The notes under the pieces are model-generated. The model worked only from the letters and a program-made list of their open reading frames with translations. It was not told the origin of the DNA and searched no databases. From contig OZ242029.1 in the NCBI GenBank assembly GCA_965205015.1, positions 1,728,001-1,792,000 on the forward strand: a stretch of DNA of 64,000 nt. The letters run 5' to 3'. The translations under genes were made by a program, and so were the position numbers. Of the stretch, positions 14,786 to 63,386 are shown piece by piece (within the stretch, counting starts at the first letter, position 1; the number at the start of each line of letters is the position of its first letter). The DNA comes from Candidatus Poribacteria bacterium. GTDB lineage: Bacteria; Poribacteria; WGA-4E; WGA-3G.

Positions 14786-15411
14786 GTTTCCGTGTACCAT
14801 GCAATAGATTCGTTTTGGAGGTAGGGAAGCAGCAGACTCTGGAGTTTCCGACGTGCGTGGTGCAGGTATGTTTTAACCGTGCTCTCCGACTTGCCCAAGC
14901 GTGATGCAATCTCCTTTATCGGGAGTCCCTCCCAGTGACGCAAGTAAAAGGCACTGCGTTGAATAAGAGGCAGCTGGTAGACGGCTTTACGGATGATGTG
15001 TTCGAGTTCTTTCCTTTCGAGAAGTGTACAAGGCGAAGGTTGCACCTCGGCCATTTGAAGTGTATCGTCTGCGTTCTGAGGTAATTCCTCGAATCCTATA
15101 ATATGTTGTTTATTTCGTTTGCGGAGAAAGTCAATGCTACGATTGACGGCAATTTGGTAAAGCCAACTGTAAAATACGCATTGTCCCTTGAAGTTAGGCA
15201 ATGCCTGCCACGCCTTCAGGAAGACCTCTTGGCAGAGGTCTTTCGCTGTTTCTCGATCCCGAACTTTGCGATAAATCAGATTATAGATTTTTTGTTGATA
15301 TTTGTAAACGAGTGGGTTAAACGCCTCTGTATCGCCATTTTGGGCGCGCGCGACAAGTTCCGCCTCGTCGAAATCGTTGAGTTCAGTGTGTGTTGTTAAA
15401 GCACTTCTCAT
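14782..15411 (-). CDS. ECF RNA polymerase sigma factor
   Basis: ATG at 15411 avoids overlap with the upstream gene. AFNPLVYKY, DLCQEVFLKAW, FYSWLYQIAVN (region 2); EIASRLGKSESTVKTYLHHARRKL (region 4). Confidence 0.92.
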   Translation of the reverse strand: MRSALTTHTELNDFDEAELVARAQNGDTEAFNPLVYKYQQKIYNLIYRKVRDRETAKDLCQEVFLKAWQALPNFKGQCVFYSWLYQIAVNRSIDFLRKRNKQHIIGFEELPQNADDTLQMAEVQPSPCTLLERKELEHIIRKAVYQLPLIQRSAFYLRHWEGLPIKEIASRLGKSESTVKTYLHHARRKLQSLLLPYLQNESIAWYTET

Positions 15412-39414: not shown

Positions 39415-39512
39415 TTGAAAGAACGATTGTAGGGGCAGGTCTTGTGCCTGCCCACGCATTACGGATTGAAAGAACGATTGTAGGGGCAGGTCTTGTACCT
39501 GCCCACGCATTA
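39415..39512 (+). repeat. Tandem pair (51-bp period) of GTAG-family REP palindromes
   Basis: GTAG-GGGCAGG-TCTTGT[GA]-CCTGCCC twice. Further copies at 45152-45176, 45235-45259 and 46671-46695. Confidence 0.85.
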
Positions 39513-42622: not shown

Positions 42623-43588
42623 GTGCATATTTCGATCGCTGATGCGCGGCAGCTCGCGGAAACTTTTTTGGCAAAAAGCGGCATGCCCCCAACGGATGCC
42701 GCTATTATTGCAGATGTTCTATTAGAAGCAGAACTCCGCGGGCGAAAAACACACGGCTTTATCCGATTGACCGGAATTAAAAGCCGTTATGAACAGGGCG
42801 AACGGACTGACATCCGGATTGACGAGGAAAAAGGACCCTGCGTGCGGATTGATGGTGGAAATCAACCCGGTTACCTCGTCGCTTATCGTGCAATGGAGCT
42901 CGCCATTGAACGCGCAAAACAGAGCGGTGCAAGCATCGTTGGTGTTTACAATACATCACATTGTGGTATGGCAGGATACTACGTCGATATGGCACGAAAG
43001 GCGGATGTCGTTGGACTCCTCTTCGTTGACTGTCTACCCCGAATTACGCCCGAGGGCGGAACCGAAGCCATTTTAGGCACCAATCCAATCGCTGTTGGAA
43101 TCCCATCCAACACAGTCCCACTTCTCTTTGATATGTCTACCGCTGCGATTACCAATGGCGATCTGCTCGTCGCCATGCAGGAAGGTGCTCCAATTGCTGA
43201 AGGAATCGCCTTTGATCCGGAGGGTGAGCCGACCACGGATGCCGATGCAGCGTTGAAGGGGAGTGTGCGTCCATTCGGTGGACATAAGGGGTTCGGACTT
43301 GCGCTTATCACACAAATCCTTGCGGGTGCCTTGGTCAATGCCGCGACAATCCCACTTCCCGGTAAAAACTACGGCTTACTTATTGTTGCGATAGACCCAA
43401 CAAGTTTTGTTCCATTGCCCCAGTTCAAGACGGAAGTCGATACCCTCATTGCGCGCGTCAAAAAGAACCGCCGAGAAGCAGGCGTTGCGGAAATCCTGAT
43501 CCCCGGTGAACGCGCCTATCGTCAAAGGGAGATACACCTCGCGAACGGTATCCACTTAGAGGACACACTCGTTAATCAATTAACGTAA
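42623..43588 (+). CDS. Ldh_2 family oxidoreductase (ComC/AllD/YiaK-like)
   Basis: AELRGRKTHG, SHCG, GTNPIA, FDMST, GGHKGFGL, IPGE. Confidence 0.93.
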   Translation: MHISIADARQLAETFLAKSGMPPTDAAIIADVLLEAELRGRKTHGFIRLTGIKSRYEQGERTDIRIDEEKGPCVRIDGGNQPGYLVAYRAMELAIERAKQSGASIVGVYNTSHCGMAGYYVDMARKADVVGLLFVDCLPRITPEGGTEAILGTNPIAVGIPSNTVPLLFDMSTAAITNGDLLVAMQEGAPIAEGIAFDPEGEPTTDADAALKGSVRPFGGHKGFGLALITQILAGALVNAATIPLPGKNYGLLIVAIDPTSFVPLPQFKTEVDTLIARVKKNRREAGVAEILIPGERAYRQREIHLANGIHLEDTLVNQLT

Positions 43589-43616
43589 TAGATTTTCCGT
43601 CGCGTTGAAAAGCAAC

Positions 43617-43645
43617 TTGCTTAAGGTTCGCCTTTCTGATATACT
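43617..43645 (+). promoter_or_regulatory. Sigma70 promoter (second copy at 44252-44280)
   Basis: TTGCTT-17 nt-TATACT with an extended -10 TG. Confidence 0.75.
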
Positions 43646-43652
43646 ATAAAAA

Positions 43653-43738
43653 CCAGTTTGGGTGGCACTGCGAAGCATCCCCGCAAGGGATATCTGCCAC
43701 CTTCCCACCTTCGCAGGGGGATAAAACACTGGCACTGG
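43653..43738 (+). ncRNA. Putative structured RNA leader (second copy at 44288-44373)
   Basis: Complementary segments CCAGU/ACUGG, GGGUGGCA/UGCCACCU, CUGCGAAG/CUUCGCAG, AUCCCC/GGGGAU. Differences in copy 2 keep the pairing. Confidence 0.55.
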
Positions 43739-43746
43739 AACCTCCC

Positions 43747-44109
43747 ATGAAAATGATTTTGCTTTTCTCAATACTCTTCTGTGTGATCGCCATGCCAGCA
43801 ATTGGGGCACTCAGCGATGCTGACCTTGACAAAATCCGCTTGATGGTCAAGGAGGAACTCAATGAGGAACTCAAGCCTGTAAAAGCAGATATAGAAACAT
43901 TAAAAACTGAAGTCGCCTATGTGCGAGGCAAACTTGATATTCTGGATAAATACGTTATCGCTGTGATAGCATTGATCGTCATTGCTGTTGGGGCACCACA
44001 AATCGTCACGGCATGGCGCAGTAGAAGAGACCGCACTCTCGAAAAGCAGATTGAAACCCTTACACAGGAAATCGAAACGATCAAGCAACAGCGGATTGTA
44101 AGTCCGTGA
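43747..44109 (+). CDS. Small exported coiled-coil protein with a single TM helix
   Basis: Signal peptide, coiled coil, TM helix VIAVIALIVIAVGAP, C-terminal coiled coil. Confidence 0.85.
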   Translation: MKMILLFSILFCVIAMPAIGALSDADLDKIRLMVKEELNEELKPVKADIETLKTEVAYVRGKLDILDKYVIAVIALIVIAVGAPQIVTAWRSRRDRTLEKQIETLTQEIETIKQQRIVSP

Positions 44110-44240
44110 CCCCCACAGACCGTGGGTGTTTTTGCTTGGGTGTCCATAGTGTTTTTCTCAGTTCCGCGCAACCCAACCTACGATGCTAACGAGGGACGGG
44201 AAAATGTTTATCTATTTTTAGGATTCCCTATGATGCTGTC

Positions 44241-44792
44241 TGAAAAGCAACTTGCTTAAGGTTCGCCTTTCTGATATACTATAAAAACCAGTTTGGGTGG
44301 CACTGCGAAGCATCCCCGCAACGGATGTCTGTCACTCTCCTACCTTCGCAGGGGGATAAAACACTGGCACTGGAACCTCCCATGAAAATGATTTTGCTTT
44401 TCTCAATACTCTTCTGTGCAATCGCCATGCCAGCAATTGGGGCACTCAGCGATGCTGACCTTGACAAAATCCGCTTGATTGTCAATGATTCCGAAAAGCG
44501 TGTTAAAGAGGAAGTCAAAGCAGAGATCACGATAACCCACACGAAACTTGACGGGTTAGACACACGACTTCGAACTGTAGAGACAAACGTTGCATGGACG
44601 CGCGGAAAACTTGACAGTCTCGACAAACACATCAATTGGCTGATGGCACTCATTATAGTCGCCGTCGGGATTCCACAGGTTATCGTCGCGTGGCGCAGCA
44701 GAAAAGACCGCGCCCTCGAAAAGCAGATTGAAACCCTTACACAGGAAATCGAAACGATCAAGCAACAGCGGATTGTAAGCCCCTGACCCCCA
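44241..44792 (+). repeat. Cassette copy 2
   Basis: Matches 43606-44115 at both ends. Confidence 0.9.
44382..44786 (+). CDS. Small exported coiled-coil protein with a single TM helix (paralogue of 43747-44109)
   Basis: Start assigned by homology with copy 1 (MKMILLFSILFC); identical C-terminus LEKQIETLTQEIETIKQQRIVSP. Confidence 0.85.
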   Translation: MKMILLFSILFCAIAMPAIGALSDADLDKIRLIVNDSEKRVKEEVKAEITITHTKLDGLDTRLRTVETNVAWTRGKLDSLDKHINWLMALIIVAVGIPQVIVAWRSRKDRALEKQIETLTQEIETIKQQRIVSP

Positions 44793-44971
44793 TCCGAAAA
44801 CAGGTCTTTCACCTCTATTACGGAGAAGACCTGTCCATCAAAGCCATCGCATCACTTTTGAAACGTTCCCAAGGCACGATCAAAACCCACCTCCGCCACG
44901 CACGCCTTCAGCGCCGAGAGTTGCTCACACCATATCTGCAAAACCGAGACCTCCCTCACATGCGCACTTAG
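44783..44971 (+). pseudogene. 3' fragment (region 4) of an ECF sigma factor gene
   Basis: My translation: LTPIRKQVFHLYYGEDLSIKAIASLLKRSQGTIKTHLRHARLQRRELLTPYLQN...stop. It aligns with the C-terminus of the 14782-15411 sigma and has no upstream start. Confidence 0.8.
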
Positions 44972-45047: not shown

Positions 45048-45267
45048 AGGACTTACGCAATTTCTATGGAAGACCTACGGCCCACACGCCGCTGGCGAGG
45101 TTTGATGAAGTTTAAGACAATATTTCGGTAATTCTATCCCAAAAAACAACTGTAGGGGCAGGTCTTGTGCCTGCCCACGCATTATCTTGTGCCTGCCCAC
45201 GCATTACCGAATTAAATTGTTAATCCTAACGACTGTAGGGACAGGTCTTGTGCCTGCCCACGCATTA
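45048..45267 (+). mobile_element. Nested MITE/REP composite
   Basis: Left part of the AGGACTTACGCA element, broken at GGCGAGGTTTGA and followed by TGAAGTTTAA...TTCGGTAAT-REP-ATTACCGAA and a further REP. Confidence 0.65.
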
Positions 45268-60581: not shown

Positions 60582-63386
60582 CTAATGGTTTTTATATCGC
60601 TCAAGTTCGTATCCCAGGATTCGAGGATTGCGGCACACCAGAAAATCCCATCTGCCAAACTTTTGGGAGTGATTGACAGCCTGAACCCATCGCCGTGCCG
60701 CTTGATGTTTCGCCTGGTCTTGCATCGTTTCTTGCCCTTTGATTTCAATAATCAGATGTATACCGTTCGTCATATTAACAATGAAATCTGGGACGTAGTC
60801 GCGCGTCGTGCCTGCGAAATGATAAGGTATTGTAAACCAGAGACCGTCATTCCGAACGTAGCTTTTAACATGTTCCGAACGTTCAAGTCGGAACGCTGCA
60901 CTTGCTTCCCATGTACTATCGACTGCAACCAAGTTAACGTGGCTTTTTTCCGTTGAGTGACAGTCTTTAGTCGTACTGAAATCCACGTCTTTAGAACTGC
61001 CGATCGGTTTGTTCAGATTGATAATCGGGAGTAACGGGGTTTCGCCTGCCGTTTCATTTGGCTGAATAGCGGCTAGGAAAAGCCCCACGATGTGATTCTT
61101 ATATTTTACATTGCCTAATTCGCGCGGATCGGTGTATCCAAATTTAACTCTCTGGTGCATGTAGTTCTCTATAAGCCTGTAGATTTGTGGAAAGAGTTGC
61201 CGACGAGACAGCATGGGTTTTCGTTCCCATTGGTCTATTGGGAGTTTTGCCAGAATTTGCCGAGCGATATCGAATTTGATGGTTTGGAAGTGATTGGACT
61301 CGTAAAATTTTTGTCTGTTATGCACTTCGCGTTCCCCGAGATAAACAGGTTTGCCTTCGTGCAAAACGATCCCTCCTGCGAAAAGTTCATCGGGACCGAG
61401 TTCGAGTTTGAGTTTCTCCATCTGATCAATGTTGGCGGTAATTGCATCGTGACGTAGTTCAAAGCTATAACTTTCAACGTTGGGAAACTGAATCTCGTAA
61501 GACTTTCGTGTCGGCAAGGCGCGCACACGGTAGGTAGGTTTATCAGGTCTTTGTTGCCGACGCTGGCGACCTTTAAATGGAATGAGTGTGAAGGGGATAC
61601 CGTAGATGTCGACGTACTCCGGGGGTAACAGTCCTGTTTCTGGATTGATATCGTAACTCATACGGCGCAGCCCGCGTCCGACAACCTGTTCGCATAACAA
61701 TTGGCTCTGAAAGGCGCGTAATCCGATGATCTGTGTTACGTTATTAGCATCCCACCCTTCGTTTAGCATTGAGACGGAAACGACGCACCGGATCTGTTCA
61801 CCCGGCTGCCCTTCTTTACCGATTGTGCTAACGACTTTTCGCAACTGCTCCGCGTCGCTTCCTTCCTCCGTGAGTCTTCTGCTGTCAATACGGAACGTTT
61901 TTACATCCCCATTTCTGTTTTCAAGCTCTGGAAACAGATCCCCGTGTCCATAAACAACTTCACCGTCTGTCACCGTTTCACCGGAGATACCGCGGTGAAA
62001 TACCTCGGCAACTTTCGTCTCTGGACAGACGACTATCATGCAGTTCGGTATATCCGATCCATTTGCATCAAACTGCGTTTTCCATTGACTGGCGAGTGTT
62101 ATGAGTGCATCGTTGGCTTCGGTATAGATATCCTCTGGTTTCGGTTTCGTACCGAGTTCGTCCGTGATGTGTTCCCACAGTCGAAAATACTTCGGTTCCG
62201 GTCGACCGGTACTGTCACTGATAGGGATACGCGGGATTTTTGTAATACCACTCTCAATCGCATCACCTAAACTGAAGTCACTGACGAGCCATTCAAAGGG
62301 TTTCCCTTCTGAGTGTCCGCTGCCTTGAAGATAGAAAGGCGTTGCTGACAAATCAACCGCAAATCGGATTCCACACGCTTGCTGAATTCGGTCCAGTCCC
62401 TGGATCCAGATGGTTGCGGTCTGTTGTTCCTCTTTCTCGTTTCTGTTAAGTTTTAGGTTGGATTCGAGGGGGCGGTAGGCATGATGTCCTTCATCGTTTA
62501 GGATCATGATTTCACCGCGTCCAGCGAGTTCCCCTAAAATACGCTCGGTATACGCTTCTGCTGTTTCTTCGCCTTTACTAACGACTTTATGGGATGTACC
62601 ACTTTCTATGTTCTCTGAAGCCAACTCGAGTTGATGCCAGTTAGTAATCTTGACTTTACCGCGCCGGAGAAACGCTTTAAGTGTCGGTGGAATCAGATCG
62701 AATGTGTCGTAATAATTCTCATCCGAGTCTGGGCGTAAAACCTGTAGGCGTTCTTTGATAGTGAGATTCGGACAGACTGCAAGTACAGCGGATGGAAAGC
62801 GTGTATCCGCACGCACTTTTCCACGATTGCAAAACGCCCATGCGATAAGCATTGCCATGACGACGGTTTTTCCGCTCCCAGTTGCCATTTTACACCCGTA
62901 ACGGATGATCTCATCGTCGCGGAGCTGCTCCAAATCTGGATCCTCAAATTCAGGGGTGAAGCCAAGACGGTGTCCTGCTCTGCGGATTTCGGCGATATAG
63001 ATAACGGTTTCTACTGCTTCTAATTGACAGAAGAAGAGTGGGCGTTGTCTCCCTTCGCGCTGCCAATACCGTAGCAGCTGCTTTGTAATGTTTGTAGCAT
63101 TTCTATAGCCAGATGCGCGCCAGCGTTTAACATCGTTGCGAAGTTTACTAACCAACGGGAGCGTGCTCCATCCCTCTTCCCGAGTGATGCTCAGTTCTAG
63201 CTGCTCATCACTGGTCCCCTGATCTCCTATCCAGTAACCGGCAGGACGACGCCCTGGCATTTCGCGAGGGTTACCAGTATCTTTGTCGTAAACCCAGTGT
63301 TTCATCGGTTCTTCGTAAGGCGAACACAAGATGGGTTCATCTACTGGTTGAATAGGGATCTCCTGTTGTTCTCGGTTTCTATCCAT
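60582..63386 (-). CDS. res: Type III restriction endonuclease Res subunit (BPTD_3080-like)
   Basis: FFCQLEAVET, KMATGSGKT, NDEGHH, DLSATP, MLNEGWD, QVVGRGLRR, C-terminal YVPDF...IEIKG nuclease motif. Confidence 0.92.
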   Translation of the reverse strand: MDRNREQQEIPIQPVDEPILCSPYEEPMKHWVYDKDTGNPREMPGRRPAGYWIGDQGTSDEQLELSITREEGWSTLPLVSKLRNDVKRWRASGYRNATNITKQLLRYWQREGRQRPLFFCQLEAVETVIYIAEIRRAGHRLGFTPEFEDPDLEQLRDDEIIRYGCKMATGSGKTVVMAMLIAWAFCNRGKVRADTRFPSAVLAVCPNLTIKERLQVLRPDSDENYYDTFDLIPPTLKAFLRRGKVKITNWHQLELASENIESGTSHKVVSKGEETAEAYTERILGELAGRGEIMILNDEGHHAYRPLESNLKLNRNEKEEQQTATIWIQGLDRIQQACGIRFAVDLSATPFYLQGSGHSEGKPFEWLVSDFSLGDAIESGITKIPRIPISDSTGRPEPKYFRLWEHITDELGTKPKPEDIYTEANDALITLASQWKTQFDANGSDIPNCMIVVCPETKVAEVFHRGISGETVTDGEVVYGHGDLFPELENRNGDVKTFRIDSRRLTEEGSDAEQLRKVVSTIGKEGQPGEQIRCVVSVSMLNEGWDANNVTQIIGLRAFQSQLLCEQVVGRGLRRMSYDINPETGLLPPEYVDIYGIPFTLIPFKGRQRRQQRPDKPTYRVRALPTRKSYEIQFPNVESYSFELRHDAITANIDQMEKLKLELGPDELFAGGIVLHEGKPVYLGEREVHNRQKFYESNHFQTIKFDIARQILAKLPIDQWERKPMLSRRQLFPQIYRLIENYMHQRVKFGYTDPRELGNVKYKNHIVGLFLAAIQPNETAGETPLLPIINLNKPIGSSKDVDFSTTKDCHSTEKSHVNLVAVDSTWEASAAFRLERSEHVKSYVRNDGLWFTIPYHFAGTTRDYVPDFIVNMTNGIHLIIEIKGQETMQDQAKHQAARRWVQAVNHSQKFGRWDFLVCRNPRILGYELERYKNH

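Follow-up and report, generated by a model that had tools for sequence, protein, structure and literature searches.

Two tandem copies of a leader stand in front of two small-protein genes in a 64,000-nucleotide (nt) stretch of a Candidatus Poribacteria genome (assembly GCA_965205015.1, contig OZ242029.1, positions 1,728,001 to 1,792,000 of the forward strand; the whole stretch is called the window here, and positions are counted from its first letter). Judged by sequence comparison, these leaders are members of a large, uncatalogued Poribacteria family of apparently structured messenger RNA (mRNA) 5' leaders of ~95 nt. Over more than 100 related copies, four helices of the proposed fold (P1, c:c', a:a' and P3) covaried strongly. 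We put at about 50% the probability that the leader serves as a 5'-terminal element for translation initiation and message stability, whose closing helix, P1, would form in two alternative registers.

Fold and covariation of the leader

The family falls into two classes: class 1 is the type found in the window, and class 2 has the same plan with other letters in its helices. We searched for them with two covariance models, R1, made from 13 class 1 leaders, and R2, the class 2 model. R1 matched leader copy 1 (43652–43749, ~98 nt through the ATG) with 108 bits (E = 3e-25) and copy 2 (44287–44384, through the ATG) with 102.1 bits (E = 1e-23), the parts of copy 1 recurring in copy 2 shifted by 635 nt. 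Both copies are class 1 and lie on the plus strand, as do all their parts named below, which are given for copy 1 unless stated otherwise.

The leader begins with the P1 5' strand CCAGUUU (43653–43659), at the predicted 5' end of the transcript, whose partner lies at 43728–43732; the enclosing helix as first read pairs CCAGU (43653–43657) with ACUGG (43728–43732). The 5' strand of helix c, GGGUGGCA (43660–43667), is followed by the 5' strand of helix a, CUGCGAAG (43668–43675), which is the pseudoknot (kissing) strand. Segment b, AUCCCC (43677–43682), provides the 5' arm of P3, a variable local hairpin of AUCCC, loop and GGGAU (43677–43691) that accepts insertions. Then come c', UGCCACCU (43695–43702), a conserved linker UCCCAC (43703–43708), in which UCCC is strand d, and a', CUUCGCAG (43709–43716). 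The conserved GGGGAUAAAAC (43717–43727), near-invariant in the alignments, starts with segment b' (GGGGAU, 43717–43722); its GGGA (43718–43721) is strand d' and its A-rich part joins P1. Two tandem copies of the P1 3' strand ACUGG follow (43728–43732 and 43734–43738), the second 8 nt before the start codon ATG at 43747.

The predicted nested fold is a three-way arrangement: P1 closes it with the first bases of the transcript, the c:c' arm is capped by the variable P3, and d:d' makes a second hairpin. Across it, by the same comparison, strand a, between c and P3, pairs with a' in the loop of d:d', so that a 7-8-bp crossing helix gives the strand order of a nested double pseudoknot. Nested folding of relatives returned P1, c:c'-P3 and d:d' with z-scores of –1.5 to –4.3 (–2.8 to –4.3 in four of the five relatives folded).

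This structure was derived by eye from the same sequences that were later scored, and shuffles and slid partners served as controls. The class 1 alignment, A7, contained 55 distinct sequences, with P1, a:a' and P3 as the only helices used in its fitting; the class 2 alignment contained 22 sequences and was made with MAFFT. When the full pseudoknotted structure was laid over A7, 93.7% of cells were paired, compared to 83.8% in shuffles, and 19 of 32 pairs had changed on both sides. The covariation score was 0.308, against 0.134 in the shuffles, none of 500 of which reached it, and 0.04–0.08 in slid controls. For class 2 the corresponding values were 93.2% paired versus 76.9% in shuffles, both-sided change in 24 of 32 pairs, and a score of 0.526 versus 0.217.

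Each helix contributed. P1 was paired in 96.0% of cells in the 55 class 1 relatives, with both-sided change in 5 of its 7 pairs. Although it stood outside the fitted model, c:c' was paired in 96.3% of cells in these relatives, and it covaries across the classes; its first pair was G-C in 47, G-U in 7 and another combination in 1 of the 55 class 1 sequences, and G-C in 18 and G-U in 4 of the 22 class 2 sequences. Both sides had changed in 6 of 8 pairs of a:a' in class 1 (6 of the 6 counted in class 2) and in every pair of P3 (5/5 in class 1, 7/7 in class 2). The fourth, short helix d:d' (UCCC:GGGA), between the linker and the conserved GGGGAUAAA, was nearly invariant in class 1, where it was 94.9% paired; its outer pair in class 2 was U:A in 13 of 22 sequences and A:U in 7. 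Many G-U cells in both classes are compatible with the sense strand only.

The two window leaders differ at six places, all within 43687–43706. Three of these lie in c' (UGUCACUC in copy 2, 44330–44337), where pairing was kept each time (two G-C to G-U and one G-U to G-C); one is a C to U change in the linker, and the other two move the local hairpin by one pair (copy 2 arms CAUCC, 44311–44315, and GGAUG, 44323–44327). These are the pairing-compatible changes that a sequence-only reading of the window had described, and the complementary segments it named (c, a, b, c', a', b' and the outer helix) were all found where it had placed them. That reading had all three inner segments pair with their complements in interleaved fashion. 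The part that stood is the covarying c:c' and a:a' inside the enclosing helix; three mutually crossing helices did not emerge, since b:b' was paired in 48.1% of cells in the 55 relatives, much as in shuffles (46.5%). The local hairpin that it had offered as an alternative for b is what the relatives support, b being the 5' arm of P3 with its five covarying pairs. Its suggestion of a conformational switch agrees with a potential alternative pairing, although this involves the tandem second P1 3' strand and not the competition among b, b' and GGAU that it had proposed.

Several variants touch on how the fold is built. The P3 loops vary freely (GCAA, GCUU, UCUC and longer forms), and in two class 2 leaders (L185:1801-1918 and L204:315-433, both minus strand; the L185 record is filed as viral) P3 carries an extra stem of ~25 nt, which marks it as an insertion-tolerant peripheral arm. 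The central 4-5 bp of class 2 a:a' (for example L127-L156) vary between nearly all lineages, each change being compensated, an unusually fast turnover beside flanking c:c' and junction letters that are nearly fixed. The class 2 junctions have zero or one base throughout, so simultaneous formation of all class 2 helices may need some fraying.

The strand order is shared with a well-known catalytic RNA. The order c, a, P3, c', a', with P3 and c' contiguous, forms a nested double pseudoknot, and this is also the order of the hepatitis delta virus (HDV) ribozyme. HDV-like ribozymes run from the 5' strand of a first helix to that of a second, then a hairpin, the 3' strand of the first helix, a linker and the 3' strand of the second, and their hairpin leads directly into the first-helix 3' strand, as it does in the class 2 leader. 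Many ribozyme classes are associated with mobile and selfish genes, HDV-like ones often with mobile elements, and the leader is likewise associated with such genes. It is nevertheless very improbable that the leader is a new self-cleaving ribozyme, or a processing signal, by which the message is trimmed close to the 5' end. HDV-like ribozymes have a short P3 whose conserved loop pairs with the strand after P1 (P1.1), and a G-U wobble at the cleavage-site end of P1. The leader hairpin is long (5-7 bp) with freely varying loops, P1.1 and P4 are absent, and the base of c:c' lacks a conserved G-U (7/55 and 4/22). The leader also adds d:d' and an enclosing helix with a duplicated 3' strand, neither HDV nor any other ribozyme model in Rfam matched it, and the promoter directly in front would leave little to trim.

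Occurrence of the family and the genes it heads

The family searches were confined to the Poribacteria phylum, apart from a pattern scan of viral contigs and metagenomes. A scan of species-representative genomes gave 80 loci, 77 of them titled Poribacteria. Some of the paralogue upstream regions in these loci had the same leader, three had a variant with other helix letters, and most had a plain ribosome-binding site of the AAGGAG type. In the window and the 80 loci R1 gave 27 matches at E ≤ 5, some of them preceding other genes. One weak R1 match in the window (62861–62940, minus strand, E = 0.16–0.26) lies in coding-like sequence without the core, and we treated it as noise. Five Poribacteria genomes searched whole yielded 6, 10, 13, 7 and 11 matches, 47 altogether, at E ≤ 0.01. 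Among 150 genomes of the phylum, 73 contained class 1 (216 R1 matches at E ≤ 1e-8) and 78 contained class 2 (R2, E ≤ 1e-4; 150 matches were listed and a further 932 counted); as only 28 candidates were scored per genome in the R2 scan, the class 2 counts are lower bounds. In the viral-contig and metagenome scan with the 17-base core pattern, 1 of 7 and 8 of 80 loci, respectively, were confirmed by R1 or R2 and the rest were chance; in the confirmed loci the leader precedes TnpB or the small-protein family.

These numbers bear on the simplest account of the window, in which a recent tandem duplication has merely copied a chance complementarity. The window copies, 96% identical, are not independent evidence, and their folding z-scores are unremarkable. 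The account is refuted all the same by the compensatory changes with which more than 100 diverged copies, in classes 1 and 2, keep the helices, and by the matches in 73 and 78 of the 150 genomes; the probability left to it is practically negligible.

Most of the 47 whole-genome matches (38) end at the start codon of an open reading frame (ORF) of at least 50 amino acids (aa). The 38 ORFs comprise 21 TnpB-like proteins, 10 members of the window protein family, 6 of a ~90-aa family with no match in Pfam, PHROGs or NCBIfam, and 1 of another type. Class 1 leaders head small membrane-protein genes and other small genes. Sixteen of the 21 TnpB-like ORFs were checked, and each one matched a TnpB model, with 14 scores reaching or exceeding the curated cut-off. 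Five matched Pfam OrfB_IS605, among them a truncated one (L105) at 29 bits against a cut-off of 30.5 bits, and eleven matched NCBIfam guided_TnpB, ten above the cut-off. A further TnpB, in locus L044 of another genome, also matched.

The class 2 leader is the 5' leader of tnpB within IS605-family elements that carry tnpB alone, so the guess of the sequence-only reading that the RNA might be related to mobility came close. Copies of one element within a genome align as left-end hairpin (~95 nt upstream of the leader), promoter, leader, tnpB and right-end hairpin. TnpB proteins that are 20–37% identical carry leaders that are 62–82% identical, and one pair of TnpB proteins with 73% identity has leaders of only 65% identity. 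With protein and leader identities uncoupled in this way, the promoter-leader module looks exchangeable between genes. Near-identical copies within one genome (L122, L123 and L125; L115 and L116) point to recent activity of the elements; the left ends of L122, L123 and L125 are each flanked on the outside by TTCAC, a possible target or transposon-associated motif (TAM) site.

Residence inside such elements raises the alternative that the fold acts as single-stranded DNA during IS200/IS605 transposition and not as RNA. The transposed strand would be the sense strand, tolerating G-T pairs, and class 2 does lie inside IS605-family elements. We consider this extremely improbable. Apart from the leader, the insertion sequences carry a subterminal hairpin of their own at either end (seen in L122, L123 and L125 and in L115 and L116), and it is these hairpins that mark the element ends. 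Class 1, moreover, including the window copies, lies outside any insertion sequence, directly between promoter and start codon.

Other structured RNAs are known from these elements. The omega/right-end element RNA (reRNA) of TnpB and the IS605-orfB motifs of Rfam come, like the leader, from the same IS605-family elements. That RNA crosses the right end into the guide. The leader instead comes after the left-end hairpin and before the tnpB start, directly behind a promoter of its own, and it also heads genes other than tnpB. One report puts omega/reRNA at the 3' end of tnpB, running into the right end (PMC4615843). A second precedent, the 5' leader of IS200 tnpA, is likewise a transposon-encoded structure at the start codon of the element's gene. 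It is a simple stem-loop over a normal Shine-Dalgarno (SD) sequence, hiding the ribosome-binding site; the Poribacteria leader differs in its pseudoknotted ~95-nt fold, in having no SD and in occurring also outside insertion sequences.

The leader was absent from the catalogues searched. Against Rfam 15, the region 43400–44900 gave only a chance match to snoR43 at E ≤ 10 (17.5 bits, compared to a gathering score of 50), 12 related loci gave none at E ≤ 1, and the window plus 13 loci (104,539 bases) gave none at the gathering score. The IS605-orfB entries contained in Rfam 15 (RF03065; IS605-orfB-I) did not match the leader loci. Neither a Poribacteria RNA motif nor a tnpB 5' leader was described in the literature searched. 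A motif named 'Poribacteria-1', attributed to a 2017 survey of 224 candidate RNAs, might be the same element, and if it is in Rfam 15 it gave no match. The main text of that survey mentions neither Poribacteria nor IS605. Together with the strong covariation among additional copies, the absence from Rfam 15 upholds the earlier description of an unrecognised structured RNA.

Broken forms of the leader were also seen. Partial leaders keep the 3' half only, with GGGGAUAAA, both P1 3' copies and the start codon (L011:2286-2377, L082:1956-2049, L124:114-182 and L031:3823-3895, the last on the minus strand), often in front of the second of two tandem genes, as if recombination joined units inside the leader. 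Elsewhere another short palindromic repeat (C-run, GATAA, G-run and so on) interrupts or replaces the leader core (L042:856-955, and L064 upstream of 2001), which suggests that small repeats insert into the leader element.

The predicted transcript start and the two possible registers of the closing helix

The distance from the –10 hexamer to the first leader base was exactly 6 nt in 44 of 56 loci and 6-7 nt in 50 of 56, and the –10 hexamer was TG-extended (TGn) in 45 of 56. From this promoter position, the leader is probably 5'-terminal in the message. In the window the promoter of copy 1 lies at 43617–43645 (plus strand), with TTGCTT (43617–43622), a 17-nt spacer and a TG-extended –10 TATACT (43640–43645) 6 nt before the first leader base; that of copy 2 (44252–44280, plus strand) is identical in its letters. 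The sequence-only reading had called this promoter strong. Its conservation in relatives supports it as a promoter, but the –35 hexamer matches the consensus at only 3 of 6 positions, which is why a consensus scan did not list the promoter.

The usual ribosome-binding site is missing. In 2 of the 56 leaders the last 16 nt before the start contained an SD-like 4-mer. Among paralogues of the window protein, 54 of 57 without the leader had such a 4-mer, compared to 4 of 16 with it (degenerate leaders counted). In the window CCUCCC precedes the ATG and there is no purine-rich SD, just as the earlier reading had it.

The 3' strand of P1 occurs in tandem, as ACUGG-N-ACUGG in the window and, for example, as CCUGAU-ACCUGAU in class 2. 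When paired with the 5' strand, the second copy gave 93.0% paired cells in class 1, with both-sided change in 3 of 5 pairs, and 86.3% in class 2, with both-sided change in 4 of 7. It lies 8 nt before the AUG in class 1 and about 5 nt before it in class 2. In a nested energy model the energies of the two registers were within 1.5 kcal/mol of each other in 32 of the 55 class 1 sequences and in 19 of the 22 in class 2, and the minimum-free-energy fold takes the distal copy in L127 and L134.

We believe these features are best explained by a 5'-terminal element, with P1 in two registers, that acts in cis on the message it heads; a general role of this kind fits the diversity of the downstream genes (TnpB, small membrane proteins, the ~90-aa family and methylase genes). 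The leader would stand in for the SD site and set the efficiency with which the start codon is used. With the 5' end buried in P1, the message should be shielded from 5'-end-dependent decay. Pairing with the proximal 3' partner would close the folded core and free the last 12-15 nt before the AUG, and pairing with the distal partner would place a helix 5-8 nt before the AUG, the position of an SD helix. The two-state closing helix could thus couple folding of the core to initiation, triggered by a ligand, a protein, an ion or temperature, or without any trigger.

If the trigger were a small molecule or ion, the core would be the aptamer of a riboswitch, and ligand binding would lock P1 with the proximal 3' strand. 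This special case of switching draws on the complex fold with its conserved junction letters UCCCAC and GGGGAUAAA, on the place of a conserved structured domain in a 5' leader, and on a P1 strand with a possible alternative partner next to the start codon. It also has a parallel in three-way-junction riboswitches of the purine class, in which P1 closes the junction, two arms are tied by long-range pairing and one P1 strand has an alternative partner beside the start codon; the purine class uses a P1-based expression platform, and in the add adenine riboswitch P1 shifts register. The leader departs from that design in the link between its arms, a 7-8-bp helix in which a bulge-like strand pairs with a hairpin loop in place of loop-loop tertiary pairs, and in lacking SD involvement and a coherent regulon. 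Its fixed place at the first base of the transcript is also not a riboswitch trait, and few conserved bases are left unpaired once d:d' is counted. A metabolite riboswitch is weakened by the incoherent set of downstream genes, with no common pathway among TnpB of several subfamilies, small membrane proteins, small proteins and methylases. We therefore regard a ligand-sensing riboswitch as unlikely.

The leader might also do less, as a constitutive, cap-like stabiliser: the compact pseudoknot, its 5' end fully paired, would do no more than keep 5'-end-dependent RNases out, and the second 3' copy would be redundant. The start of P1, which falls on the predicted +1 or +2 position in 50 of 56 loci, the very stable predicted folds of four of five relatives and the diverse downstream genes all agree with this. 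A plain hairpin would suffice for such a task, however, and the stabiliser accounts neither for a second copy that covaries and keeps a fixed distance of 5-8 nt to the AUG nor for the consistent loss of the SD, which makes it quite unlikely.

A bolder proposal, which we rate as a long shot, is that the leader recruits ribosomes by building a substitute for the SD helix from its own strands. Paired with the distal copy, the first 5-7 transcribed bases would form a blunt-ended helix 5-8 nt upstream of the AUG, at the site of the SD:anti-SD helix on the 30S platform, and the pseudoknotted core with the proximal copy would hold or release the P1 5' strand. This would explain at once why P1 stands at the first transcribed base, why the SD is always missing, why the distal copy covaries and why its spacing from the AUG is fixed.

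A number of results weigh against the preferred reading of a 5'-terminal initiation and stability element, or temper it. How ribosomes start without an SD is left unexplained by our results. Single-sequence folding of the window copies was no better than that of shuffles (z = –1.08 and +0.26), and because these leaders fold unremarkably alone, the structural case rests on comparison with other copies. In that comparison the A7 fit itself included P1, a:a' and P3, and the shuffle controls overstate significance, since the sequences compared are related to one another, many of them as insertion-sequence copies. Helices c:c' and a:a' could alternate rather than form together. The second P1 3' copy is absent in some class 1 copies (L004 on the minus strand, L089, L098 and L111). 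Nine of the 47 whole-genome matches do not end at an ORF start: three have an ORF 22-23 nt further on (two of them before the same methylase-like gene), two have one more than 100 nt further on, and four have none within 200 nt. Finally, three metatranscriptome runs (containing 0.06–0.08 of the sampled words) yielded nothing but contigs from the copies of relatives, whose ends could not be used; the pieces were 90–95% alike and some extended upstream of the promoter, showing neither transcription nor silence.

The window locus and what the leader may mean

In the part of the window that was read closely (43200–44900), each unit of the tandem duplication consists of promoter, ~95-nt leader and small-protein ORF, in that order. 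The earlier description of a duplicated leader is matched by a first repeat block of 248 nt with 96% identity (43606–43853 and 44241–44488, 635 nt apart); a second block of 220 nt is 75% identical. Two probes of 23-25 nt each had 2 matches in the window, compared to 0 expected by chance. ORF 1 (43747–44109, plus strand) encodes 120 aa with a signal peptide, a coiled coil, a transmembrane helix and a C-terminal coiled coil, and a terminator-like hairpin with a T-run follows it (44112–44135, plus strand). ORF 2 (44382–44786, plus strand) encodes a 134-aa paralogue; the 153-aa ORF listed from 44325 starts at an ATG within leader copy 2. Leader-internal ATGs of this kind were used by gene callers in the window (44325–44381) and in proteins P0011 and P0014, giving 146-153-aa forms whose spurious N-terminal extension is translated leader. 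The small protein had 993 relatives at E ≤ 0.01 among 1014 candidates, with a family layout of signal peptide, coiled coil of variable repeat number, transmembrane helix and conserved C-terminal coiled coil. Its searches against Pfam, PHROGs and NCBIfam gave only weak matches of the coiled-coil type, all under the cut-off.

Two further features lie nearby. An orphan fragment of sigma-70 region 4 (44783–44968, plus strand; Pfam Sigma70_r4_2, E = 6e-10) has no start codon. It begins at the ORF 2 stop in the –1 frame, and at the C-CCC-TGA junction a –1 slip would read through into it. A paralogue with 48% identity lies at 14803–14964 on the minus strand of the window, and no counterpart was found in the flanks of the related loci fetched. 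A GC-rich repeat of 26 nt occurs four times, in two intergenic pairs (39436–39512 and 45159–45267, plus strand), against 0 expected; it looks like a small dispersed repeat of the repetitive extragenic palindromic (REP) kind.

For annotation, the leader has a practical consequence, in that gene callers extend ORFs into it, as in the 153-aa call at 44325. More broadly, a complex covarying fold with more than 1000 copies in a little-studied phylum of sponge symbionts joins the structured RNAs without a known job. Work on TnpB, the ancestor of Cas12 nucleases, has centred on its 3' guide RNA, and this fold is tied to the expression of TnpB. The paralogues that carry either an SD or the leader within one protein family offer a natural test case for SD-less initiation, and the contrast between them could show whether a two-register closing helix works as a general expression switch. 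If the leader does build a substitute for the SD helix, it would be an SD-independent, structure-based initiation module that has been spread by IS605-family elements and captured by host genes.

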